Origin: an uncultured Clostridia bacterium | GTDB taxonomy: Bacteria > Bacillota > Dehalobacteriia > UBA4068 | Reading direction: 5' to 3' | NCBI GenBank assembly: GCA_944393575.1 | Contig: CALYAP010000014.1 | Location: forward strand, 2,819 to 66,818 | DNA length: 64,000 nucleotides | Part shown: positions 2,445-14,219 of the stretch, in pieces | Layout of the letters: every line of letters begins with the position of its first letter | How positions within the stretch are numbered: the stretch's first letter is position 1 | Made by a program: the position numbers and the translations under genes | The notes under the pieces: generated by a model | The model's input: the letters and a program-made list of their open reading frames with translations, nothing else | What the model was told of the DNA's origin: nothing | The model's database searches: none

Positions 2445-4550
2445 TTAAAAATGCAAGGTTGCTAAATGGCTCAGATTGTTGATATCGACAATGGTGATAC
2501 TATTGAAAAGGCAGATATAGATGCTATCATCGACAAAGAGTCCCCGTGCTTCATTATACCAGTTTTCTTCATCAGCACTAAAAGAACCTCTTTGATAAAA
2601 TCCTTGGGTATCGTCATAACCATAGACTTCATATTGATTATTATCAGTGGGGAAGGCAATCAGGTCATGCGCTGCTGAAACCAAGATCGCCTTATGGTTA
2701 TAGAGGGTCTGAGAGTATTGGCTGTCTAAGATTAAAGTATGCTTTTCGGTTACATTAACCGGATCGCTGGTATCGAACATTGTCAATTTTAAATTACCGG
2801 TGACACCTGTTTGTTCATCTGCATCTTGCCCCAGACCCAATAAACGGCCATCGCTGTAGGGATGAAGATATTCAGAAAAACCAGGGATTTTTAACTCGGA
2901 GAGCATTTGCGGTGCATATGGATCAGAAAGATCTACGGTAAATAAGGGGTCTACCTGCCGGAAGGTAACAAAGTAGCCGACATTGCCTGTAAAACGGACG
3001 GAATAAACCTGCTCGCCAGGGGCAAGATCTTCGATGCTGCTGGCTAACTTTAATTCTTCGTCTAGTATCCACAAGGCGCTAGTGGTAGAATTTGCTTCAT
3101 CATCCCACTGGTAATTTTGCCAACCTCTGGCTTCATCAGTATAGATTTTATAGTTGTTGTTATTAACAGTGGTCACTGCCCGCAGATATCCATTGTATTC
3201 ATCAAGCGCAAACTGACTGTCCAGCCAACCTTCGATTTGGCCGGCAGCTACCAAACTAATACTTCCGTCACTAAGGGAGAAGCGCATAATATCAGTAACG
3301 CTTTGCTCCTCATAAGCTACCACAGTATATTGATCTTCAGTATAGGGGGAGCTTTCTGCAGTTTCATAATAGCTGCGGGCAATATAGAGATTATCATGAT
3401 TCATGTAAATAGTATCTCCGCCGCCTAAAACGCTGATCTTATCTTCGATGGTCTGACTTGTTAGGTTAATAGCGCTAATAATGGTATAAGTAGAGCTTTC
3501 TGCTTCTGGTAGCAGGCAGATAGCATCAGCATTGATAATAGTCCGTTCTTCATTTTGATAAATGCCAGGAACAAAGGTTGCTGGTTGTTCACTATCGATG
3601 CCGCTATAGACTGAATATTGACTGATAAGGTATAAAGTGTTATCGATTAACCGGGAACTGGTATAATAACCATCCTGTCCGACACTATTCAATAGTTGGG
3701 GAGAAGTAGGATCGCTGATATCATAAATTAGAATAGACGTCACTTCTGTGCTGCCTGGCCAATAGTCTGCCACTGCATCTGTCTTGACGGCAGCTCCATT
3801 GGCATCGGAATTGCTTGTTGCACTAGGATAACTGCAAATCATTAATTGAGCCTTAGAAGTGATTACTGCTAAATAGTTATCATAAACATAGATCTCCGAG
3901 GCAAATTGATAGCTTTCATCTGCTGCTAATTCATCAAAGTCGGGTAGTATCTTAGTTTGGGAAAGAATAGCGCTGTCAGCACCGTTGGCACTACTGATAA
4001 TCAATTCATTATCACGAAGCAGATAGATGTTTTGCCTATCAGTTTTGACAATATCTCCTTCATCAATGCCTGCTACCTGAGTATTAGTTTGCGAATAGTT
4101 TTCGGTTTCGGCTGAGTCAAACGCAGCGCTGGATTGCGGTGTGTTTACGTTATCGCTATTGGAAATATTTGCTGTAGGGGAGGATGAAGTATCTTCGCTG
4201 ATCACCTCTTCGGTAAAGCTGGAGTCGCCAAGCGAAGTTTGAATCAACGCTTGATAGATCTCATCATAATTGCTGGCCGCATAGACTAAATCACTGGAAA
4301 ACGGTTGCTGGAGATCAGTATTCTCCCCGTAGCTATCGGGTAGAAGGGCTGCTGCACCGAGAAAGAATAATAGGCAAGCAGCGATAAGCACAGCTATTTT
4401 TCCGCTACCTTTTTTCTTGGGCATTTTCTGGTGTGACTGTTGCTGTTGCTTTTGCTGTACTTTTTGCCAGGTGCTTTCAATTTCATTTTTGTTTGCTGGC
4501 GGTGCATCTTTGGTGAGTTTATTAAGATATTGATCGAAATCTTTATTCAT
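2445..4550 (-). CDS. membrane anti-sigma factor with large extracytoplasmic beta-propeller domain
   Basis: Short cytoplasmic N-terminus, one TM (IAVLIAACLLFFLGAAALL), ~600-aa secreted repeat domain. Its ATG overlaps the stop of the upstream ECF sigma (ATGAATAA). The track start at 4628 is probably too long. Confidence 0.7.
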   Translation of the reverse strand: MNKDFDQYLNKLTKDAPPANKNEIESTWQKVQQKQQQQSHQKMPKKKGSGKIAVLIAACLLFFLGAAALLPDSYGENTDLQQPFSSDLVYAASNYDEIYQALIQTSLGDSSFTEEVISEDTSSSPTANISNSDNVNTPQSSAAFDSAETENYSQTNTQVAGIDEGDIVKTDRQNIYLLRDNELIISSANGADSAILSQTKILPDFDELAADESYQFASEIYVYDNYLAVITSKAQLMICSYPSATSNSDANGAAVKTDAVADYWPGSTEVTSILIYDISDPTSPQLLNSVGQDGYYTSSRLIDNTLYLISQYSVYSGIDSEQPATFVPGIYQNEERTIINADAICLLPEAESSTYTIISAINLTSQTIEDKISVLGGGDTIYMNHDNLYIARSYYETAESSPYTEDQYTVVAYEEQSVTDIMRFSLSDGSISLVAAGQIEGWLDSQFALDEYNGYLRAVTTVNNNNYKIYTDEARGWQNYQWDDEANSTTSALWILDEELKLASSIEDLAPGEQVYSVRFTGNVGYFVTFRQVDPLFTVDLSDPYAPQMLSELKIPGFSEYLHPYSDGRLLGLGQDADEQTGVTGNLKLTMFDTSDPVNVTEKHTLILDSQYSQTLYNHKAILVSAAHDLIAFPTDNNQYEVYGYDDTQGFYQRGSFSADEENWYNEARGLFVDDSIYICLFNSITIVDINNLSHLATLHF

Positions 4551-5091
4551 TAATAATGCCCCTTTCCTGGAGGTCTTTTCGTAGTTTGAGCTTGCTTTGG
4601 TAAAGCCGGTTGCTGATTTGTTTTTCATTCATCTGTAAGTGTGCTGCAATGTCCCGTACTGATTCTAAAAGATAATGCCTTCTAACGAATATTTCCCGGT
4701 CTGGCTCTGGTAGAAGATTGACTGCTTGTTGTAATATGTCGCTATCTTCTTGTGCCAACAAATATTCGACTATATCATGTTGGTCATAAAGCAATTCATC
4801 GTTCAAGGGAACCATATTGCTCCGTGACAGTTGTTGGAGACGGTTGATTGCCTGATGACGGGCGGTAACGATCAGTAAGCCTTTGAGCGAGCCCCGCTTA
4901 GGATTCAGCTTGGAGGCATTTTTCCAGATCTTGATAAAGGTATCGGCAATAGCCTCCTCAATATCCTCCGGATGGCCTGCTAGAACATTGGCACAAATTT
5001 TACCAACAAGCCCACGATAGGCACTGATCAGTTGATGCAGTCCTTCCTGTGGCGTTCTTTTTAATAATTTGATAATGGCGATATCGTCCAT
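4543..5091 (-). CDS. ECF (sigma-70 family) RNA polymerase sigma factor
   Basis: Region 2/4 ECF architecture; translationally coupled to the downstream anti-sigma gene; likely start at the ATGATG after an AAGGAGGA RBS. Confidence 0.85.
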   Translation of the reverse strand: MDDIAIIKLLKRTPQEGLHQLISAYRGLVGKICANVLAGHPEDIEEAIADTFIKIWKNASKLNPKRGSLKGLLIVTARHQAINRLQQLSRSNMVPLNDELLYDQHDIVEYLLAQEDSDILQQAVNLLPEPDREIFVRRHYLLESVRDIAAHLQMNEKQISNRLYQSKLKLRKDLQERGIINE

Positions 5092-5243
5092 CATATCCTC
5101 CTTGGCCAAGGAAAATATCTTTCACTTATATATACAGGTATAAGCACGTTTTTTCTTAAACGTATTTGCCAAAATGACTTGAAATTCATCCTTCAGCATA
5201 ACAACCCTTAAACTACTAATCAAATGAACAGTAGGCAAACAAA

Positions 5244-5326: not shown

Positions 5327-5497
5327 TCAGGTGCCTTTGGGATTTTTGTTTTTGCAGTCGCAATGGGTCATCGCCCCAGTAGCTGCAATCACTTTATCTA
5401 CAGTATCAGCTCCTGCACGCATAGCGGCAACAATATCGTCTTCAGTAACCTCATCGCAATAGCATATATATTTGGGCGATGTAGTCTCAGATACCAT
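5327..5497 (-). CDS. BFD-like [2Fe-2S]-binding mini-protein (56 aa), missed by the 60-aa ORF cutoff
   Basis: My translation is MVSETTSPKYICYCDEVTEDDIVAAMRAGADTVDKVIAATGAMTHCDCKNKNPKGT, with CxC...CxC like the Bfd-like ORF at 18039; GGAG 3 nt upstream of the ATG. Confidence 0.6.
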   Translation of the reverse strand: MVSETTSPKYICYCDEVTEDDIVAAMRAGADTVDKVIAATGAMTHCDCKNKNPKGT

Positions 5498-5526
5498 TTG
5501 CTCCACGACCTTTCATTATGATATTT

Positions 5527-5754
5527 TTATAACAATACCGAGGACGTGTATTCGACTTTGATGTCATTATCTTTGGTACGTGCTAATTTGGCCTTATTGC
5601 CTCTACCATCTTCTAATGTCATTTTTTCTAGCTTATAGGTATTAAAAAAGTTGACTACCTCAGACTCGATAAAAGCAGACCAGTTTTTTACTTGAACCTT
5701 CTCTGGTTCCAAGGCTTCCTCAAGAGTTTGAGGATTAGTAGCATATTGACTCAT
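5527..5754 (-). CDS. hypothetical 75-aa protein, probably co-transcribed with the Bfd-like mini-protein
   Basis: Strong RBS GGAGGGA 5 nt upstream of the ATG; no recognisable domain. Confidence 0.5.
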   Translation of the reverse strand: MSQYATNPQTLEEALEPEKVQVKNWSAFIESEVVNFFNTYKLEKMTLEDGRGNKAKLARTKDNDIKVEYTSSVLL

Positions 5755-5962
5755 TTGGCTCCCTCCATCAAATATGGTTAATAAAATAACTGTTTGCCCT
5801 AGGGCATAAACCAGTATAGCATAAACCAGAAATGGAAGTAAAGCTGAAAAAAGTATCTGCTAATTTATGACAATGCTCTATGGGATTCAGCTAATTGTTG
5901 TTGTTAAATCCCCTTTGTTCTGGGCATAATAAGCTGAGGTATAATTGAAGGAGGAATCATAG

Positions 5963-6121
5963 ATGAGGAGATACCAAAGCTTATTTAATAACTATATGGC
6001 TGTAGTTAATATGATCCTTAGTGAGGGAAGAAAAGGATGCGGTAGGCAATGCCCTTATTGTGGTAGCTTAAGTGAAAATGATTTTGAATTTTGCCATCGC
6101 TGTGGAAAAAGAATTTCCTAA
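5963..6121 (+). CDS. 52-aa zinc-ribbon mini-protein (CPYCGS...CHRCG), missed by the ORF cutoff
   Basis: Excellent RBS GAAGGAGGA with 7-nt spacer; CxxC-N13-CxxC; lies just upstream of the dinB promoter. Confidence 0.5.
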   Translation: MRRYQSLFNNYMAVVNMILSEGRKGCGRQCPYCGSLSENDFEFCHRCGKRIS

Positions 6122-6140
6122 ATTTAGTAATTATTAGCCC

Positions 6141-6169
6141 TTGACTAGAACGTATGTTCGAGTTATGAT
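6141..6169 (+). promoter_or_regulatory. sigma-A promoter (TTGACT-17-TATGAT) with an embedded LexA/Cheo box AGAACGTATGTTCG
   Basis: -35 at 6141-6146, GAAC-N4-GTTC at 6148-6159, -10 at 6164-6169. The track ORF 6141 starts inside the -35, so that start is an artefact. Confidence 0.75.
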
Positions 6170-6221
6170 GATTATAGGTATTGGCAATTATCGTTTTTAT
6201 TGGTGGAGGGCTGATCTACGG

Positions 6222-7508
6222 TTGGAAAATATTATTTGCCATATTGATGTTAATAGCGCTTTTCTTTCTTGGACCGCAGTAGATCGGCTGCATAGATTAC
6301 CTGATTCTATCGATATCAGAGAGACTCCTGCGGTGATCGGTGGAGACCAGCAAACGCGGCGTGGTATTGTTCTGGCTAGCAGTATTGTGGCCAAATCCTA
6401 TGGAGTTAAAACTGGCGAACCACTTTTTCAAGCATTACATAAATGCCCGCATTTAGCTATTTATGCCCCTGACTATGAGCTCTATGTGCATTGTTCTGCC
6501 CGATTAATGGATTTACTGCAGAAGGTAGCGCCAGTTGTCGAGCAGTATTCCATTGATGAGGCTTGGATCGATTTGACTGGTACTGATAAATTATATGGGG
6601 ATCCGGTACGTGTCGCTACACTGCTGAAAGACCGTATCCGCGATGAATTGGGCTTTACTGTCAATATTGGTATCTCGACTAATAAACTGTTAGCTAAGAT
6701 GGCCAGCGATTTTCTGAAACCAGACCGTGTTCATACTTTATTCCCGGATGAATTAGCTGCAAAATTATGGCCCTTGCCAGTAGGCAAGCTGTTTTTTGTC
6801 GGTCCGGCTACAGAGAAAAAATTGCTTGCTATGGGTATTTTAACCATCGGTGACTTGGCGAAAGCTGATGTTCGTCATTTACGCTCACGCCTGCATAAGC
6901 ATGGCGAGATCATTTGGCATTATGCTAATGGCCGCTGTTTTGATGTGGTAGCTAGTCAAGCTTCCTTGAATAAAGGGTATGGTAATTCTACCACCACTGC
7001 TTTGGATATTATCGATATTACCGCTGCCCATAAGGTATTGCTATCACTGAGCGAGACTGTGGGGGCCAGAATGCGACGGGACAACCAGTATGGTTCTTGT
7101 TTGACGCTTCACTTGCGTAGTAGCCAATTTCACGACTTTTCTCATCAATTGCAATTAGCCTATCCAACTAATTTGACCTTAGAGATATATCAGGCCGCCT
7201 GCTTGGCCTTGAATCAATTATGGGATAAGCATACGCCTTTGAGACAGCTGGGTATTTATATGAGTAAGGTCGATCATTATGGTATAAGACAAGGTAGCTT
7301 ATTTACTGATGATAATTATACTAAATTATCGCAAGTCGATAAAACCGTAGATAAAATAAGGGAAAAGTTTGGCAGCGATGCTATTTTCCGGGCCTGTTTG
7401 GCAGAAAAGAACATTAGGCCAATGAGTGGCGGCCCTCTCTCTGATCCCTTCCGGCAGCGGTCGCGATCTTCTGATAATCGTTCTTTGACTAATGATATTA
7501 AGAAATAA
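6222..7508 (+). CDS. dinB: DNA polymerase IV (Y-family translesion polymerase)
   Basis: MENIICHIDVNSAF aligns with MxKIIHVDMDxFF; fingers/palm/little-finger order. I chose the TTG at 6222 as the start. Confidence 0.9.
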   Translation: MENIICHIDVNSAFLSWTAVDRLHRLPDSIDIRETPAVIGGDQQTRRGIVLASSIVAKSYGVKTGEPLFQALHKCPHLAIYAPDYELYVHCSARLMDLLQKVAPVVEQYSIDEAWIDLTGTDKLYGDPVRVATLLKDRIRDELGFTVNIGISTNKLLAKMASDFLKPDRVHTLFPDELAAKLWPLPVGKLFFVGPATEKKLLAMGILTIGDLAKADVRHLRSRLHKHGEIIWHYANGRCFDVVASQASLNKGYGNSTTTALDIIDITAAHKVLLSLSETVGARMRRDNQYGSCLTLHLRSSQFHDFSHQLQLAYPTNLTLEIYQAACLALNQLWDKHTPLRQLGIYMSKVDHYGIRQGSLFTDDNYTKLSQVDKTVDKIREKFGSDAIFRACLAEKNIRPMSGGPLSDPFRQRSRSSDNRSLTNDIKK

Positions 7509-7820
7509 TTGAGCAAAGACGAAAAAAGACAGCTGTTAAGGCACCATCCGTAAGAAAGGTGCACTAAGACTTTTGTATATCAAATTAAAATTGTTGTGTT
7601 TTACCGGTGTAGCCTTTGGTTATGCCGTTTTTTCTTTGCTGCGTTCCAGTTCCGCTAAATGCTCTTGGAGTGATTCTTCCATTTCGAGTTTTCTTTCCTA
7701 TTCAGTTGTTGCTCTCTAAAAAGAGTATTTTATGTCCTACCAGATCAGAGATTATTTGTCAAGTTGCGTATAGACAGGCAAAAGTAAGGGCATACTAAAT
7801 AATTTTCCCTTCCGTAAATC

Positions 7821-7844
7821 GTGATATATTGCTATATAGATCAC
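7821..7844. promoter_or_regulatory. inverted repeat GTGAT-N14-ATCAC with internal palindrome CTATATAG; candidate operator upstream of the flavodoxin-fold operon
   Basis: Seen in sequence; ~270 bp upstream of 8115. Confidence 0.3.
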
Positions 7845-8114
7845 AATTTGTTTTATTCTCATAATATCCTCTCAACAATCCCTATTCCCTGTCGCATAAA
7901 GCGTCATACATACTTTTTACACATATTTAACCGAAAGCGGGTAGTTGCTTTATGCTGCACATTATATAATCAAAATGGAATATTGTCTTTGTGATAAGTT
8001 AAAATGCGAGACGCTTTTGGGGCCTTTTCATCACAAACGTTTCGACAAACCAGACCGCTATGTTTTCGGTAAGAATGGCGTTAAAAAGTTATTTTAAAAG
8101 GAGAAGCTGGTATA

Positions 8115-8611
8115 TGAAGGTGATAATCCACGATCTTAGAGAAGGGGAGGCTCTTTTTCTGGGAAAATCGGATAAGGATTCGGTTGTCATTCATGCGAAC
8201 AATCAGTATGCTCCCTGCTGTGGCTGTTTTAAGTGTTGGCTGAAGAACGCCGGTTTTTGCATAATGAAGGATTCTTTGCAGCACATTGGAGCGCTCATTG
8301 GCCAGAGTGATCCGCTGATCATCGTCAGCCAGTGCTGTTATGGTGGGTATAGCAGCCCTGTCAAGGCTATCTTGGATCGTGCGATTGGGGAGTCTCTCCC
8401 GTTTTTTACCTGGCGGGGCGGGCAAACTCACCACATTAGCCGTTATCCCCATCGGAAGTTGCTGCGTGTTTATTTTTATGGGGAATGCACGAAATTTGAA
8501 GAGGAGATAGCCAAAGAGGTTGTCGAGCGCAACCGTCTGAATCTGGATTATGAGGAAGCGGATGTGGTTTTCTTCAAAAATATCGAACAGATAAAGGAGG
8601 CCAGCTTATGA
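8115..8611 (+). CDS. Isf-like flavodoxin-fold protein with compact Cys motif (CCGCFKCx7C) but lacking the N-terminal FMN phosphate-binding loop
   Basis: APCCGCFKCWLKNAGFC followed by DPLIIVSQCCYGGYSSPVKAILDRAIG resembles the Isf / NADPH-dependent FMN reductase fold. RBS AAAGGAGAAG 7 nt upstream; ATGA overlap with the next gene. Confidence 0.55.
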
Positions 8612-9351
8612 ATCTTCTAATCTTGAATGCAAGTCCCAAGAAAAAGGGTGGCGCCTCCCGATTTTTCTCGGGTTTATTCCGGCTGTTTCTGCCGGGCATC
8701 CGAAAAAAAGTGGTATCCCTTAGCTGTCAACAAGATTTTCAGCGAGTACTGGAACTATTGCCCGGCATGGATGTGGTATGCCTTTTCGTCCCTCTTTATG
8801 TAGATGGCCTTCCGTCCCATATAGTGGAATTTCTCATCCAAGCGGAGGGATACTGTAAAAATCATCCTTGCCAGTTCCGATTGTATGTACTTGCCAATAA
8901 CGGTTTTGTCGAAGGAAAACAAAATCGACCCGCTCTAAATATGCTTCAGGCGTGGTGTGAAAGGGCAGAAATCACTTGGGGTGGCGGAATCGGAATTGGC
9001 GGCGGGGTGATGCTCCAGGTATTGGGGATCATTTACCCCATCCTGATTGGAATCATCCTGTTGCAAATGGCGTTATCCCTTTGCAGCATCGGCACCATTT
9101 CAGGCGAATTATGGCGTTCTTTCGTCATCCAGATGTTAACATGGCTTTTTCTCAATAGCGGCATGTTGTGGTGTATGGCACGTCTTTCGTCAGCTATCCG
9201 TAGGGAGCGAGTATTGCCCAACCAATTTACGCGGGTCATGATACCCTCTTGGCTGTTTATCCCCATCGCGGACGTATTTATGATTTTATCTTCTCTCTTT
9301 CAAGGCCGCTTTCTTTTCGCACTTTTGCAGCAGGACAAATGGCATAGTTAA
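8608..9351 (+). CDS. NAD(P)H-dependent FMN reductase-like flavodoxin-fold domain fused to a C-terminal multi-TM membrane anchor
   Basis: LILNASPKKKGGASRFF phosphate-loop-like N-terminus and VVCLFVPLYVDGLPSHIVEFL; C-terminal ~100 aa form hydrophobic helices. Confidence 0.55.
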   Translation: MNLLILNASPKKKGGASRFFSGLFRLFLPGIRKKVVSLSCQQDFQRVLELLPGMDVVCLFVPLYVDGLPSHIVEFLIQAEGYCKNHPCQFRLYVLANNGFVEGKQNRPALNMLQAWCERAEITWGGGIGIGGGVMLQVLGIIYPILIGIILLQMALSLCSIGTISGELWRSFVIQMLTWLFLNSGMLWCMARLSSAIRRERVLPNQFTRVMIPSWLFIPIADVFMILSSLFQGRFLFALLQQDKWHS

Positions 9352-9364
9352 TAGGAGGATAGTT

Positions 9365-9910
9365 ATGGAGCATATCATTGTCTACGGCAGCCATTATGGA
9401 AGCACCCGCCGATATGCGGAAAAACTGTCTGAACAAACCGATATTCCGGCGGTTAGTTATAAACAAATGCCAGATCTTTCCGATATAAAAACTATTATCT
9501 ATTTGGGTGGATTGTATGCTGGCGGCGTCCTGGGATTGGCAAAAACCTTGCGGGGCCTCTCCTTGCATGGGGGACAAACGTTGATCATCGTCACAGTGGG
9601 TTTGGCTGACCCCAAAGAACCGGAAAATCGAGAAAATATTCGAGTATCTCTTCAAAGACGGCTTCCGACAGAACTGTTTTGTCGGACGAAAATTTTTCAT
9701 CTTCGAGGGGGTATTGATTACCAGAACCTGAACGTCGGACACCGCACGATAATGGCATTACTGTACCAGTCTGTTTGCAAGACGTCTTGTGAAAAGCAAA
9801 CCGCAGAGAATCGGGCATTTATAGAAACTTATGGAAAACAGGTGGATTTTACAGATTTCCGTGCGTTGCAACCGATTATTGAGGAAATACAGGGGAAACG
9901 ATATGAATAA
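9365..9910 (+). CDS. flavodoxin-domain protein (HemG-like / Flavodoxin_5-type)
   Basis: MEHIIVYGSHYGSTRRYAEKL and IIYLGGLYAGG pattern matches the long-chain flavodoxin/HemG-like family; RBS TAGGAGGA. Confidence 0.6.
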   Translation: MEHIIVYGSHYGSTRRYAEKLSEQTDIPAVSYKQMPDLSDIKTIIYLGGLYAGGVLGLAKTLRGLSLHGGQTLIIVTVGLADPKEPENRENIRVSLQRRLPTELFCRTKIFHLRGGIDYQNLNVGHRTIMALLYQSVCKTSCEKQTAENRAFIETYGKQVDFTDFRALQPIIEEIQGKRYE

Positions 9911-10712
9911 AACCTTTAAAAATATACTGAAAATCCTTCTAATCGGTCTTATCACCACTATCGTCCGCATCATCGGGCAACTTTCTATCCCAGCTGGCGA
10001 GCAGACAGTTCTGGAGCCTAGTGTTTTCGCACAAAACGGTACCATGCCACTGGCTTTTACTGTCTATGGGATTTTCGCTTACTCACTGATTGCTTCGTTG
10101 TTCCTGCTCATCCGGAACCGGTTGGGCGGAAAGCTGATTTTACAGGGTCTGAAATACGGCCTTTCCTGCTGTGTTGTGTGGATTGTTTATCTTTTAGAAC
10201 CTTTACCCCATGTAGCGGTCATTGATCGGATTACTTACCCAGTGGCTGATAGCTTGGCTTTGATTGTTATGGGTTTGCTGCTTGGATGGCTATTTGGAAA
10301 ACCCAAATATTCAGCAGGCCTGCAGAAAACTGCATTTCCTGTCCTTCCAGTGCTGACCGTGACTGCCTGCTTCTTCGCCGGGCGGATGATACAATATTTT
10401 ATCTTTGGCATTTACTCTTCTTTTGATGAGAAACCATTGGAAACGGTACTGTGGTGTCTGTTGACAGGTCTTGCAATCTCCTGTGTGATGTCATGGCTGA
10501 ATCTTTATATTAGCAACGGAAATAGGGTAAAGAGGGCAATGATTTTGGGCTGCCTTTTGTTTGGGGTGGATTTGATTCTCTTCAATTTCTTTATGCCATT
10601 AGTGTTTGATGCAGACATCTCCGATCTGATCCTCCGAAGCTTAATCGACATCCTGGCAGTGACTCTCGGATGTCTGTCATTCTCGAATAAGCGTAATGCC
10701 GTTGAGCTGTAA
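9903..10712 (+). CDS. uncharacterised polytopic membrane protein (~7 TM)
   Basis: ATGA overlap with the upstream flavodoxin gene; hydrophobic throughout; no family recognised. Confidence 0.5.
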   Translation: MNKTFKNILKILLIGLITTIVRIIGQLSIPAGEQTVLEPSVFAQNGTMPLAFTVYGIFAYSLIASLFLLIRNRLGGKLILQGLKYGLSCCVVWIVYLLEPLPHVAVIDRITYPVADSLALIVMGLLLGWLFGKPKYSAGLQKTAFPVLPVLTVTACFFAGRMIQYFIFGIYSSFDEKPLETVLWCLLTGLAISCVMSWLNLYISNGNRVKRAMILGCLLFGVDLILFNFFMPLVFDADISDLILRSLIDILAVTLGCLSFSNKRNAVEL

Positions 10713-10726
10713 GGAAGGGGAACTGG

Positions 10727-11917
10727 ATGCAGGAAAAACGAAGTATTCGCTTTGGGAAATGGGTGCTTAAGGTTGTGGTATCTTATGCGGTGTTTATTAT
10801 CATCGGCCTGCTATTCTCCCTTGTCCCGGCCAGTCGTCTTGGATTGTCTGAAGAAATGTTTTTCAACCTTCGGATGTTTTTCATGCTCTTTGGCCCGATC
10901 TATCTCACCCTGATCGTCAAAATTATTTTGACCTTTATTCCTGCCATAAAAAAGCAGACAAAAGATATCGCCGAAAAAAGCAGGGGAGTTTTGTTTACCA
11001 TCACGGCACTGCTGCTATTTGCTAACCTATCCAATGCGCAGACGGTCTCCGACTTTACAACTGGATATGTCCAGGGCAAAGGATTGCGGAATCTGGAAAA
11101 AAGTAAACGGTATTCCCTGAAAGGCAAGCGTTTTCTAAATGTCTTTCTGCCGGTGGGGTTCTATTTGCTGGTTTTAGAACTGTTGACGCTCATCGTCTGT
11201 ATTGTCGTTTTTGCACCTCTTTCACAGATTGCCAGCCATGCCTTTATTCTTACCATTGCTTTGACCGCCTTGCTGTTGCTTTTGATTCCGCTTATCCTAT
11301 CCTTAATTTCTGGTTATCAGGGAGACAAGGCCGTATATAAAGAAAGGCTCGCACAGGAAAAGCAAGCTGCTGTCCAGTCAGATGTCCGGGTGCTGGAAAC
11401 CGACCCAGTTTGCCGGAAGCGGTATCTCCTGCTGCCAAAAATATTGACACTGTTAGTTTGTCCTGGCGTTTGCTTGATTTCTGGACTTGTACTTTCTCTT
11501 ACCAAGAACGCTCAGGATCTTTTGACCGTCCAGCTATTGAGGAGGCCATTTTTGGTGTTGATGGCTGTCGCCGTTTTCTCCTTTATCCCTCTGCTGATGT
11601 ATTGGGTCAACTGCTCCGGAACATCCTTGGTACAGCGGGTTTATCTTGAACAGAACCAGCTGTATTATACCGGTTACAGTGGCAGCATGGAGGAACGTAG
11701 GGAATTCACCTTTACACTGCTTCAACTGGAGAGCTATCGTGTTGGGAAAAGAGCCATCCGCATCCGAGGGCAGTTTACCAAAAAGACAAAGGATTCTTAC
11801 GCTACCAATAAAAAAGGCCCGTTCACCAAAACATTGTGGCTCCCTCGAACCTTCACGTTGGAACAGGAACAGGCCCTGTTGCAATTTTTACATGATAAAG
11901 CAGCTCATGTTCATTGA
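10727..11917 (+). CDS. uncharacterised membrane protein with N-terminal TM bundle and C-terminal soluble (possibly bacterial PH-like) domain
   Basis: RBS GGAAGGGGAA; multiple TM segments; C-terminal 90 aa are hydrophilic and K/R-rich. Confidence 0.5.
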   Translation: MQEKRSIRFGKWVLKVVVSYAVFIIIGLLFSLVPASRLGLSEEMFFNLRMFFMLFGPIYLTLIVKIILTFIPAIKKQTKDIAEKSRGVLFTITALLLFANLSNAQTVSDFTTGYVQGKGLRNLEKSKRYSLKGKRFLNVFLPVGFYLLVLELLTLIVCIVVFAPLSQIASHAFILTIALTALLLLLIPLILSLISGYQGDKAVYKERLAQEKQAAVQSDVRVLETDPVCRKRYLLLPKILTLLVCPGVCLISGLVLSLTKNAQDLLTVQLLRRPFLVLMAVAVFSFIPLLMYWVNCSGTSLVQRVYLEQNQLYYTGYSGSMEERREFTFTLLQLESYRVGKRAIRIRGQFTKKTKDSYATNKKGPFTKTLWLPRTFTLEQEQALLQFLHDKAAHVH

Positions 11918-12076
11918 CCGTTTTTTACTAGCTATACAAGAAATAAAGGCATAACGACACATAAAAAAGCAATCACTGTGCTGGAAGGCATACATTTCTT
12001 TACTAATTTAATGGATAAATTTTGATGATATTTTATTGTTTCCGACGTATTTCATGAATAGGAGGTGAGTTTGATG

Positions 12077-12253
12077 TACAAAACGGTGGTTGTCAAATAT
12101 TCTCCTAAGGCAAAGGAAATGGCCGTCAGAGTAGAGGAAACGGCCAACAAAATGGAACAGGACGGGTTTGAACTGGTTTCCTGCTCTATCACACCTTCTT
12201 CCAAAGGAATCCTGGTATTCAAAAAATCTGGTGAACTGGCGCTAGAAAAATGA
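12077..12253 (+). CDS. DUF4177-like mini-protein (58 aa)
   Basis: RBS AGGAGGTGA; MYKTVVVKY...DGFELVSCS...ILVFKK pattern recalled for DUF4177. Confidence 0.45.
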   Translation, partial: YKTVVVKYSPKAKEMAVRVEETANKMEQDGFELVSCSITPSSKGILVFKKSGELALEK

Positions 12254-12270
12254 GTCTTTCTTGTCGCAAA

Positions 12271-12315
12271 GAAAAAAGCACTTAGAAGCGAATGGTTCTA
12301 AGTGCTTTTGTTTTT
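12271..12315. terminator. bidirectional rho-independent terminator
   Basis: A6-agcacttagaa-loop-ttctaagtgct-T9. Confidence 0.8.
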
Positions 12316-13217
12316 ATGGTATTCAGAGCAGCGTCTTGTTTGGCCTTTGCCTTTTCTAAATCCTCAAAATCTCCTAAGTCGGTCAGTTGAACTTCCGATG
12401 CGTCTACAGTGAGCAGCACAAGCTGTCACAGCCTTATTTTTATAGCCGATTTTTATTTTCAGAAGCGGTAACCAAAAAATGCTGCTGCCATACATTGTTT
12501 CGTAGCTGATTCAGCTTTTCTCATTGGTCAGTTCTTCAACTTTTTGGATAATATTATAAACATGGCTTCTTCTCGGAGACACAGAAAGATATAAAAACCG
12601 GTCTTTGTCAGCAGTACATACGCTTTACGGATGTGAATATCAATCCCACCAGCCGGAGCAGATATTCATCGAGAATCAGGAATAGACACAATAGAGAAAA
12701 GGGCAAATAAACTATTTGGTTTGTCCGCTCTATATATTTGATTGAGAAATAGTACTATACATCTATATTGACAGCGGTAGAACTGGGTTTCAGGTTGATT
12801 TCTGAGCGCTATGAGTTGATCTCAGAGAGCTCTGAGCACAGTAGCGTGATCCACGCCAGCAACAAGTATTTCAGCCACTGGAGCGAGCCGCTCAGTGACA
12901 ATATACTGAGCCCTGAGCTCCAGGATAGTCTGCTTTTCCATGCTCATGTAGTGAAGCATTTATCGGTTGTGGAACCGTGTTAAGGCCAGTGCCCAGACGG
13001 TTCTGCCGACCAAAATTCTAGCAGCTGGCTGACTGGATGCTAGATTTGCGACGTTGCCAAGTGTTGTTTTGATTCCGGCGGTTGGGGTATCTTCTACATG
13101 GTATTTGAAGCTTTTTCATTCCAGCGTTGGCAATAGAAAGAGTAAACCCACTCACCCCATTTGGGTGGGTATGCGTGAGTGGGAAGATAAAAACAAAATA
13201 TTGCATCATAGAAAACA

Positions 13218-13384: not shown

Positions 13385-13414
13385 GTATAAATGTTTGGGT
13401 TTACGGTAATAATT
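13385..13414 (+). promoter_or_regulatory. forespore sigma-F/sigma-G-type promoter for sigG (GTATA-15-GGTAATAATT)
   Basis: -35 GTATA 13385-13389, 15-nt spacer, -10 GGTAATAATT matches GGnnAnAnTn. Confidence 0.65.
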
Positions 13415-13448
13415 GATTCATAAGCGCCAACTCCGAGGAGTGAATAGC

Positions 13449-14219
13449 TTGCTTAATAAAGTGGAGATCTGCGGTGTTAATACCGCTAAGTTGCCAGTAT
13501 TACCAAATGACAGAATAAATGAATTGTTTGTAGAGATGCAAAAGGGGAATAGAGAGGCCCGGGAGGAGCTGATTGCCGGCAACCTTCGTCTGGTTTTGAG
13601 CGTTATCCAAAGGTTTAATAATAGAGGTGAAAATGCCGATGACCTTTTTCAGGTTGGCTGCATTGGTTTGATAAAAGCAATCGATAATTTTGATCTAAGC
13701 CAAGGCGTACGCCTTTCTACCTACGCTGTGCCGATGATCATTGGTGAGATCCGCCGCTATTTGCGTGATAATAATGCGATTCGTGTTTCCCGCTCTATGC
13801 GTGATATCGCCTACCGTGCGCTCCAGGCCAGAGACGCTTTTGTCAATGAGCATGGTAAGGAACCAACGATCGATGAAATAGCTAAAAAAATAGATTTGCC
13901 GCGCGAAGATGTTATTTTTGCTTTGGACGCAATAGCTGACCCGATATCCTTATTTGAGCCTATCAGCAATGAGAGTGGCGACCCAGTATACATGATGGAT
14001 ATGGTTGGCGATGAAAAATATGGCGAAAAGACCTGGCTGGAATCCCTGAATATCCGGGAAGGATTGTCCAAATTAGGCGAACGGGAGAAAAAGATTATCA
14101 ATCTACGCTTTTTTGTCGGCAAAACGCAGATGGAAGTGGCAGAAGAGATCGGTATTTCTCAGGCGCAGGTGTCACGCTTGGAAAAAGGCGCTTTGATGCA
14201 GCTGCGTAAGTATATTTAA
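13449..14219 (+). CDS. sigG: sporulation sigma factor sigma-G
   Basis: Near-identity over long stretches to B. subtilis SigG as recalled (NKVEICGV, GNLRLVLSVIQRFNNRGE, FQVGCIGL, MIIGEIRRYLRDNN, QMEVAEEIGISQAQVSRLEK). TTG start after a GAGGAG RBS; the track start at 13413 is too long. Confidence 0.93.
   Translation: MLNKVEICGVNTAKLPVLPNDRINELFVEMQKGNREAREELIAGNLRLVLSVIQRFNNRGENADDLFQVGCIGLIKAIDNFDLSQGVRLSTYAVPMIIGEIRRYLRDNNAIRVSRSMRDIAYRALQARDAFVNEHGKEPTIDEIAKKIDLPREDVIFALDAIADPISLFEPISNESGDPVYMMDMVGDEKYGEKTWLESLNIREGLSKLGEREKKIINLRFFVGKTQMEVAEEIGISQAQVSRLEKGALMQLRKYI

Follow-up and report, generated by a model that had tools for sequence, protein, structure and literature searches.

A gene pair of gut anaerobes encoding a cysteine-motif protein and a flavin-reductase-like protein with a predicted membrane hairpin

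Flavodoxin-fold flavin mononucleotide (FMN) reductases, among them ChrR, AzoR, WrbA, MdaB and the iron-sulfur flavoprotein Isf, have a central role in how gut bacteria metabolize quinones, azo dyes, drugs and oxidants, and to our knowledge they have been described as soluble homo-oligomers. A pair of overlapping genes, A and B, encoding a protein of this kind and its partner was analyzed here in a 64,000-nucleotide stretch (the window) of an uncultured Clostridia bacterium (GenBank assembly GCA_944393575.1, contig CALYAP010000014.1, positions 2,819 to 66,818, forward strand). An original prediction, read from the letters of the window, had described B as an FMN-reductase-like protein continuing into transmembrane (TM) helices and followed by a HemG-like flavodoxin, the product of gene C; its coordinates and quoted peptides were correct. 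B was confirmed as a real, conserved and uncharacterized flavin-reductase-like protein of gut anaerobes. The architecture of the A-B pair is well supported, and its chemistry is what we infer from that architecture. No description of the A-B family was found in Pfam, NCBIfam or the searchable literature (membrane-anchored FMN reductase/Isf, Flavodoxin_5).

Members of the PF03358 family (ChrR/YieF, SsuE, ArsH, YhdA/AzoR) are homodimers or homotetramers. B was 9-15% identical to them and gave no PF03358 match; B alone carries a hydrophobic hairpin of ~65 residues before the last strand/helix, and it has an obligate, coupled and non-identical partner in A. The predicted hairpin and the obligate A argue for a quaternary structure unlike that of the soluble NAD(P)H homo-oligomers. 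Isf, with the Methanosarcina thermophila protein as prototype, resembles the pair in its flavodoxin-like fold, in its compact four-cysteine motif (here in A) and in its strictly anaerobic hosts, and the inventory expected for the pair, an iron-sulfur (Fe-S) cluster plus FMN, would be the same. Unlike Isf, which has FMN site and cluster on one chain and forms homo-oligomers, the pair would have them split over A and B, with one subunit (B) predicted to be membrane-inserted. KefF/KefC and the WrbA/MdaB-type quinone reductases are peripheral or docked on a separate membrane protein, whereas B has a predicted integral hairpin of its own and a partner with an Fe-S motif.

Fold and predicted membrane hairpin of B

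The two genes and the parts of their products discussed below are as follows.

8114-8611, + strand: gene A, 165 residues, flavodoxin-like fold without an FMN phosphate loop; ribosome-binding site (RBS) AAAGGAG
8216-8260, + strand: cysteine motif of A, C35-x2-C38-x2-C41-x7-C49, of the compact Isf type CX2CX2CX5-7C
8608-9351, + strand: gene B, 247 residues, FMN-reductase-like with an inserted, predicted membrane hairpin; RBS AAGGAGG
8608-9000, + strand: B residues 1-131, five beta/alpha units of a flavodoxin-like fold
9004-9201, + strand: B residues 133-198, hydrophobic two-helix hairpin (helices 133-161 and 166-198), predicted to span the membrane with both ends cytoplasmic
9223-9300, + strand: B residues 206-231, strand YTRVMxP (invariant R209, P213) and last helix of the fold

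At E<=1e-3, 846 proteins matched B, mostly ~248 residues long and aligned end to end; when 1.84 billion cluster representatives were searched exhaustively with HMMER, the relatives numbered 2092 at E<=1e-3, 1229 at 1e-10 and 115 at 1e-30. An alignment of 55 sequences, reaching down to 42% identity, contained invariant residues along the whole length (P10, P62-D66, P69, G126-G133, R209, P213, F224, M225, G233), the hydrophobic part and the segment following it included. Gene neighborhoods were compared in 80 species loci, the best 80 of 453 stretches encoding B relatives in a genome scan of species-representative genomes. Their hosts were Lachnospiraceae, Oscillospiraceae/Ruminococcaceae (with isolates of Intestinimonas, Allofournierella and Gemmiger), Erysipelotrichaceae, Treponema and other Spirochaetes, Brevinematales and one Leptolinea metagenome-assembled genome (MAG). 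The habitats were gut and anaerobic, and oxygen-sensitive gut Clostridia and termite-gut spirochaetes were among the hosts.

The B of the window gave no Pfam match at E<=0.1, did not reach the PF03358 gathering threshold and gave no NCBIfam match; some homologues carried a 'faint' precomputed PF03358 match and nothing more. Against the Protein Data Bank (PDB), the B family profile matched the AzoR/YhdA NADPH azoreductases over residues 1-72 (E 0.004). In the AlphaFold model (predicted local distance difference test, pLDDT, 89; predicted template modeling score, pTM, 0.84) the five beta/alpha units formed the five-stranded parallel sheet of a flavodoxin-like fold, followed by the two helices of the hairpin, a short strand (206-209) and a helix (214-231). 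All three canonical FMN loops are kept in the B family. In the window they read NASPKKKGGAS (after strand 1), PLYVDGLPSH and NNGFVEGKQN; the consensus of the second and third is PLYVDxxPSH and NNGFxEGxQN, and in the first S9 is present in at least 90% of homologues and P10 is invariant. From this sequence pattern B is predicted to bind FMN. The FMN-reductase-like start proposed for the 8608-9351 product was borne out by the conserved loops, the azoreductase matches and the modeled fold.

The hairpin interrupts the fold ahead of its last strand/helix, beginning immediately behind the Gly-rich loop of strand 5, and was modeled with block means of pLDDT 89-97. For the three C-terminal helices of B, the best 19-residue windows had predicted insertion energies of ~0, 2-3 and 3-4 kcal/mol on the Hessa scale, against 12-23 kcal/mol for the soluble helices. 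Helix 1, with a Kyte-Doolittle value of 2.58, was as hydrophobic as bona fide TM helices. Mean counts of Lys plus Arg were 0.27 in the loop between helices 1 and 2, 4.7 after helix 2 and 3.6 in the tail, a positive-inside pattern from which an N-in, two-span, C-in topology was predicted. In soluble relatives the last helix is amphipathic; in B it is hydrophobic, and therefore probably interfacial rather than spanning. The ~100 residues of TM helices proposed for B were accordingly reduced to the two-helix hairpin: the segment WGGGIGIGGG, included in the proposal, is strand 5 with its Gly loop, and the third helix is the probably interfacial one.

Two further interpretations of the hydrophobic part were considered and rejected. 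A heme-binding hairpin was ruled out, as no conserved His occurs in the B helices and a single one occurs in D. Extracytosolic FMN reductases flavinylated by ApbE have been described (PMC11334425); B was ruled out as one of them, since strand 1 begins at residue 2 and leaves no signal peptide, and the positive-inside pattern places the domain in the cytoplasm. An ApbE-type protein was not among the most frequent Pfam families of A-B neighbors.

Coupling of A to B and the soluble sister family

In 76 of the 77 informative species loci, gene A either immediately preceded B or was fused to it. The A stop and B start overlapped by exactly 4 nt in 71 of the 77; three others had overlaps of 1, 13 or 19 nt. 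In the window the ATG of B overlaps the TGA stop of A (ATGA); A was taken to start at 8114, the listed open reading frame start at 8060 being an upstream extension. The only locus with A and B apart (L047, 1184-6789) had ~4.2 kb between them, with a gene of ~850 residues in the interval. Tandem A-B pairs stood side by side in L058 (141-2538) and L087 (4320-6744), a Treponema and an Acetatifactor MAG, with a more divergent second B copy in each (E 2e-16 and 9e-05, respectively); the pairs of L058 were mis-paired by the script, yet the 4-nt overlap was present. In-frame A-linker-B fusions in L043 (470 residues; 5335-6747, a C. symbiosum MAG) and in P0401 (membrane type) look genuine. Other natural fusions were found in P0470, P0490 and P0497 (soluble type), and in all of these low-complexity linkers connect the two domains. 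A is almost always present as an obligate, translationally coupled partner of B.

The N-terminus of A, MKxIIHDL, has no phosphate loop and is followed by almost no helix 1. The cysteine motif follows strand 2, with C35, C38 and C41 invariant and C49 present in at least 90% of 31-35 A homologues. The compact CX2CX2CX5-7C motif has been described for iron-sulfur flavoproteins (PMC3164229), and A is a probable [4Fe-4S] protein. In B the phosphate loop is present and the cysteine motif absent, in A the reverse, so the two features of Isf are split between two coupled, sometimes fused genes.

The exhaustive search also returned a larger set of proteins of ~205-216 residues that match the B profile at positions 1-140 only. 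These are annotated as 'flavodoxin family proteins' (e.g., P0435, P0443, P0446, P0458), carry weak Flavodoxin_2/FMN_red matches and a sub-threshold EFR1-ferredoxin match, and are uncharacterized. They retain PLYVDxxPSH, NCGFYEGxQN, WGGGIGIGxG and the C-terminal strand/helix with its invariant Pro; a short polar linker (VPAGHGPKK...) stands where B has the hairpin, and the last helix is amphipathic, from which the proteins are predicted to be soluble. This sister family resembles membrane-type B in its N-domain motifs, its invariant-Pro C-terminus, its overlapping A partner with the cysteine motif (P0446 is preceded by an overlapping A gene of 165 residues with the motif) and its A-B fusions. 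Relative to it, the hairpin is an insertion of ~45-55 residues, the N-terminal part of which replaces the polar linker, flanked by the shared motifs GIGxG and RLSxAIR..N.F...P.F. Since the motifs are shared and a linker takes the place of the hairpin, the membrane form of B is, as judged from these alignments, a derived branch of the soluble family with an insertion and a hydrophobized last helix. One soluble-type relative, P0424 (386 residues), ends in ~15 tandem NPSTLQPF repeats, which probably reflect misassembly or a reading frame that extends into repetitive DNA.

The C-D-E-S module and the surroundings of the cassette

Genes A, B, C, D, E and S form a compact run on the + strand. The remaining features of the cassette and its borders are listed here.

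7605-7627: terminator-like hairpin ending the upstream gene dinB
7915-7972, + strand: conserved upstream block, TTTTACACAGATTTAACCGAAAG...GATAGTyGCTTTATGCTGC...TATAAT, with TATAAT at 7965-7970
9365-9910, + strand: gene C, 181 residues, Flavodoxin_5 (PF12724)
9903-10712, + strand: gene D, 269 residues, polytopic membrane protein, family unassigned; its start overlaps the stop of C
10727-11917, + strand: gene E, 396 residues, membrane protein with a soluble C-terminal domain, family unassigned
~12074-12253, + strand: gene S, ~59 residues from MYKT, small protein, last in the cassette
12274-12309, both strands: strong, bidirectional terminator-like hairpin with a 14-bp stem, closing the cassette after S

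C matched Flavodoxin_5 at E 8.7e-16 (59 bits against a cutoff of 27) and has a flavodoxin-type phosphate loop, GSHYGSTRRYA; unlike B, it has no hydrophobic segment. In its PF12724 domain, its length (181 residues in both) and this loop C is like HemG, the menaquinone-dependent protoporphyrinogen IX dehydrogenase. It is unlike HemG in its host, a gut Clostridium and not a gammaproteobacterium, and in the outcome against the HemG equivalog model NF008316: no NCBIfam match was obtained with C at thresholds as loose as E<=10, while the E. coli HemG sequence used as positive control was validated by its score of 334 bits (cutoff 142). By BLASTP the best alignment of C with E. coli HemG had an E value of 0.34, with the aligned segments out of register and the long-loop region not matched. 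The HemG-like identity proposed for C was rejected on these two results, and what remained of it was the Flavodoxin_5 domain. The cassette contains no heme-biosynthesis or menaquinone genes; none for quinone or heme were among the best NCBIfam matches listed for the window, a weak negative given that the top 25 families were covered.

Among the 80 species loci, C was found 3' of A-B in 24, all within the clade at least ~51% identical to the B of the window; D was found in 15, E in about 10 and S in 13, with D or E individually missing in some. A metagenome scan for the C family yielded 80 loci, 64 of them with room upstream. A-B or B was present in 31 of these 64, and in the other 33 C stood alone or with D, E or S, behind an intergenic gap and divergent genes. 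Because C occurs without A-B in so many loci, C-D-E-S is a separate, optional module, often docked behind A-B and not part of the A-B core. D and E gave no Pfam or NCBIfam match and have no heme-type His pairs. S (MYKTVVVKYSPKAKEMA...GFELVSCSI...) was conserved after the cassette in its 13 species loci (E 1e-26 to 1e-31), with conservation starting at MYKT, and it also accompanies C/E where A-B is absent; it gave no Pfam match and a weak NCBIfam match to the Sp36 family (E 0.04).

Upstream of A, the block at 7915-7972, also written TTTTACACAGATTTAACCGAAAG..GATAGTCGCTTTATGCTGC..TATAAT, was the only conserved non-coding stretch in an alignment with seven related cassettes, and it is a putative promoter/operator of the cassette. 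A generic sigma-70 scan of the + strand did not list it. No Rfam match was found in the window at gathering scores, and none in 7500-8200 at E<=1. A riboswitch or structured leader upstream of A was ruled out: the leader folded no better than shuffled sequences (z 0.49) and gave no covarying consensus structure.

In the 45 A-B loci without C, D or E, regulators of the TetR (7-9 loci) and PadR (4 loci) types were the commonest immediate neighbors, their genes lying just 5' of the pair and in its orientation. The other neighbors were scattered and included genes for MatE, an alpha/beta-hydrolase, an Old Yellow Enzyme-type flavin oxidoreductase (PF00724), an aldo-keto reductase, a metallo-beta-lactamase-fold protein and MerR/PNPOx; no respiratory genes were found in the loci surveyed. 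These surroundings resemble those of quinone/xenobiotic reductases, a modest signal for detoxification.

The window at 7799-12350 was 76-81% identical in DNA to cassettes in genomes labeled as different families (L046, L010, L012, L018, L013-L016 and L048, with the labels Lachnospiraceae, Oscillospiraceae/Ruminococcaceae and 'Faecalibacterium sp. An122'). The similarity extends from ~300 nt upstream of A through S, and the flanks (dinB, sigma factor genes) are not shared. Housekeeping genes make up the rest of the window (ileS, alaS, mfd, glmU, murA and hisD among the best NCBIfam matches). Cassette DNA that is similar across families, set between differing flanks in an otherwise housekeeping window, suggests that the cassette moved horizontally as a discrete unit.

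Several observations concern the flanks. The dinB gene (DinB/Pol IV, 6141-7508) was called from TTG with ~34 residues preceding the IMS domain, and its true start is probably further downstream. An extracytoplasmic function (ECF)-type sigma factor gene (4543-5109) lies upstream of the cassette with a downstream open reading frame of 727 residues, possibly for an anti-sigma factor (2445-5109, - strand), and a second sigma-70-family gene lies downstream of it (13413-14219, + strand). The window held three ECF/sigma-70 matches in all, and none was kept beside the cassette in other genomes.

Readings of the A-B pair

The reading that we prefer, at a probability of about 0.5, is that A-B is a membrane-tethered, heteromeric Isf-like Fe-S/FMN flavoprotein passing low-potential electrons to a lipophilic acceptor. 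A and B would form a heterodimer at the cytoplasmic side of the membrane, with B held there by its hairpin. In related reductases the strand-5 Gly loop lines the flavin/substrate pocket; because the hairpin starts right after this loop, the flavin site would lie at the bilayer surface. The Fe-S cluster of A would be reduced by ferredoxin, NAD(P)H or a flavodoxin (C, for instance) as low-potential donor, and electrons would pass to the FMN of B and on to a lipophilic acceptor in the membrane, be it a quinone-like compound, O2, or a phenolic or xenobiotic of hydrophobic character. Ion pumping would not be expected. In the clade of the window, the C-D-E-S module may provide A-B with a donor or partner of its own, outside the core machine.

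A number of results weigh against this reading. The TM call for B was made with hydrophobicity scales and AlphaFold2 (AF2), not with a trained topology predictor; helix 2 of the hairpin is marginally hydrophobic, and across the 55 aligned sequences the hairpin has no conserved His or charged residue that would point to a quinone site. A PDB sequence search with A alone and with the A-family profile returned nothing relevant, and no Isf entry came from the PDB profile search or from the fold searches, so the link to Isf is carried by the cysteine motif; that motif is what stood of the Isf-like character proposed for the first gene, which has no phosphate loop. A comparison of the A and B profiles gave an E value of 0.18 over the helix-2/strand-3 region, which is not significant and leaves a recent paralogy of the two unsupported. 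The cassette of the window has no adjacent regulator, the place being occupied by TetR/PadR in distant relatives. Since neighbors are heterogeneous and most loci have no informative one, a reading of the surroundings as detoxification is weak.

Among other accounts of the pair, an oxidative-stress enzyme of the Isf kind, located at the membrane and reducing O2 and H2O2 with ferredoxin electrons in strict anaerobes, is unlikely, though the least so. Isf is itself reported to reduce both oxidants in this way (Cruz and Ferry 2006), the cysteine motif of A is of the Isf type, and the hosts include oxygen-sensitive gut Clostridia and termite-gut spirochaetes. Yet no genes of peroxide or oxygen stress recur beside A-B (no rubrerythrin, flavodiiron protein or PerR), with TetR and PadR regulators there instead, and the searches retrieved no Isf structure or sequence. 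As O2 and H2O2 are not membrane-confined, the hairpin would also go unexplained, which counts against this account. Quite doubtful is the three-step relay of the original prediction, in which the products of A, B and a HemG-like C would hand electrons on to membrane quinones. Its flavodoxin-type folds stood for all three products, the genes lie close together in a single transcription unit, and the co-occurrence counts given above (24 of 80 species loci; 31 of 64 informative C loci) speak for an association; but C is HemG-like in nothing beyond its Pfam domain, the hydrophobic segment belongs to B and not to C, most A-B loci lack C, C lacks A-B in 33 loci as a member of a separate, optional module, and no quinone or heme genes appeared among the best family matches listed for the window. 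An energy-conserving ferredoxin:quinone oxidoreductase that replaces Rnf or Ech is very unlikely. A membrane anchor with predicted Fe-S and FMN would be the minimal inventory for one, but a two-helix hairpin devoid of conserved charged or polar intramembrane residues makes ion translocation implausible, the large soluble sister family has the same partner, and the distribution is patchy and cassette-like, with the pair duplicated in some genomes and no respiratory neighbors.

Two alternatives concern B itself. That the hairpin lies outside the membrane, in the core of a soluble oligomer or as a site for hydrophobic ligands, would fit the marginal energies of helices 2 and 3 (2-4 kcal/mol); the TM-like helix 1 (Kyte-Doolittle 2.58, ~0 kcal/mol), a connecting loop nearly devoid of Lys and Arg against a mean of 4.7 in the return loop, and the polar linker at the same place in the soluble sister family make this less probable still. 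That B arose from a frameshift joining a reductase gene to a gene for a membrane protein was ruled out, the probability being practically nil. Frameshifts do occur in the database entries P0060, P0064, P0082 and P0085, of which P0060, P0064 and P0085 are long read-throughs of A into B; they join A to B or break single copies and do not create the architecture of B, whose junction is conserved in dozens of independent full-length homologues from different phyla. On this point the original prediction, which treated B as one gene, was upheld.

The tethered Isf-like flavoprotein that we prefer has a more far-reaching form, offered tentatively and considered improbable, though not to the degree of the relay. 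In this form A-B and the soluble sister family would together make up an unrecognized split Isf-type class, with A as Fe-S entry and B as site of FMN catalysis; the hairpin branch would be a minimal integral-membrane ferredoxin/flavodoxin:lipophilic-acceptor oxidoreductase of gut anaerobes, feeding membrane quinones directly or else compounds from diet or host that partition into the membrane, phenolics and bile pigments for example, and C-D-E-S its dedicated donor/partner set.

The locus points to an uncharacterized branch of the flavodoxin-fold reductases that divides the enzyme between a subunit with the Fe-S motif and one for FMN, the latter built into the membrane by its inserted hairpin in a subset. 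The A-B module is small (two genes), and with its natural fusions and cultured carriers, such as Intestinimonas butyriciproducens An565 (L029) and Allofournierella massiliensis DSM 100451 (L030), it is directly testable. If its predicted chemistry is true, the pair would be a new route for low-potential electrons to hydrophobic acceptors in strict anaerobes, for example Lachnospiraceae, Oscillospiraceae (isolates of Intestinimonas and Allofournierella among them), Erysipelotrichaceae and termite-gut spirochaetes, and it would bear on xenobiotic and drug transformation, oxygen tolerance and electron disposal in organisms often thought to be without respiratory chains.

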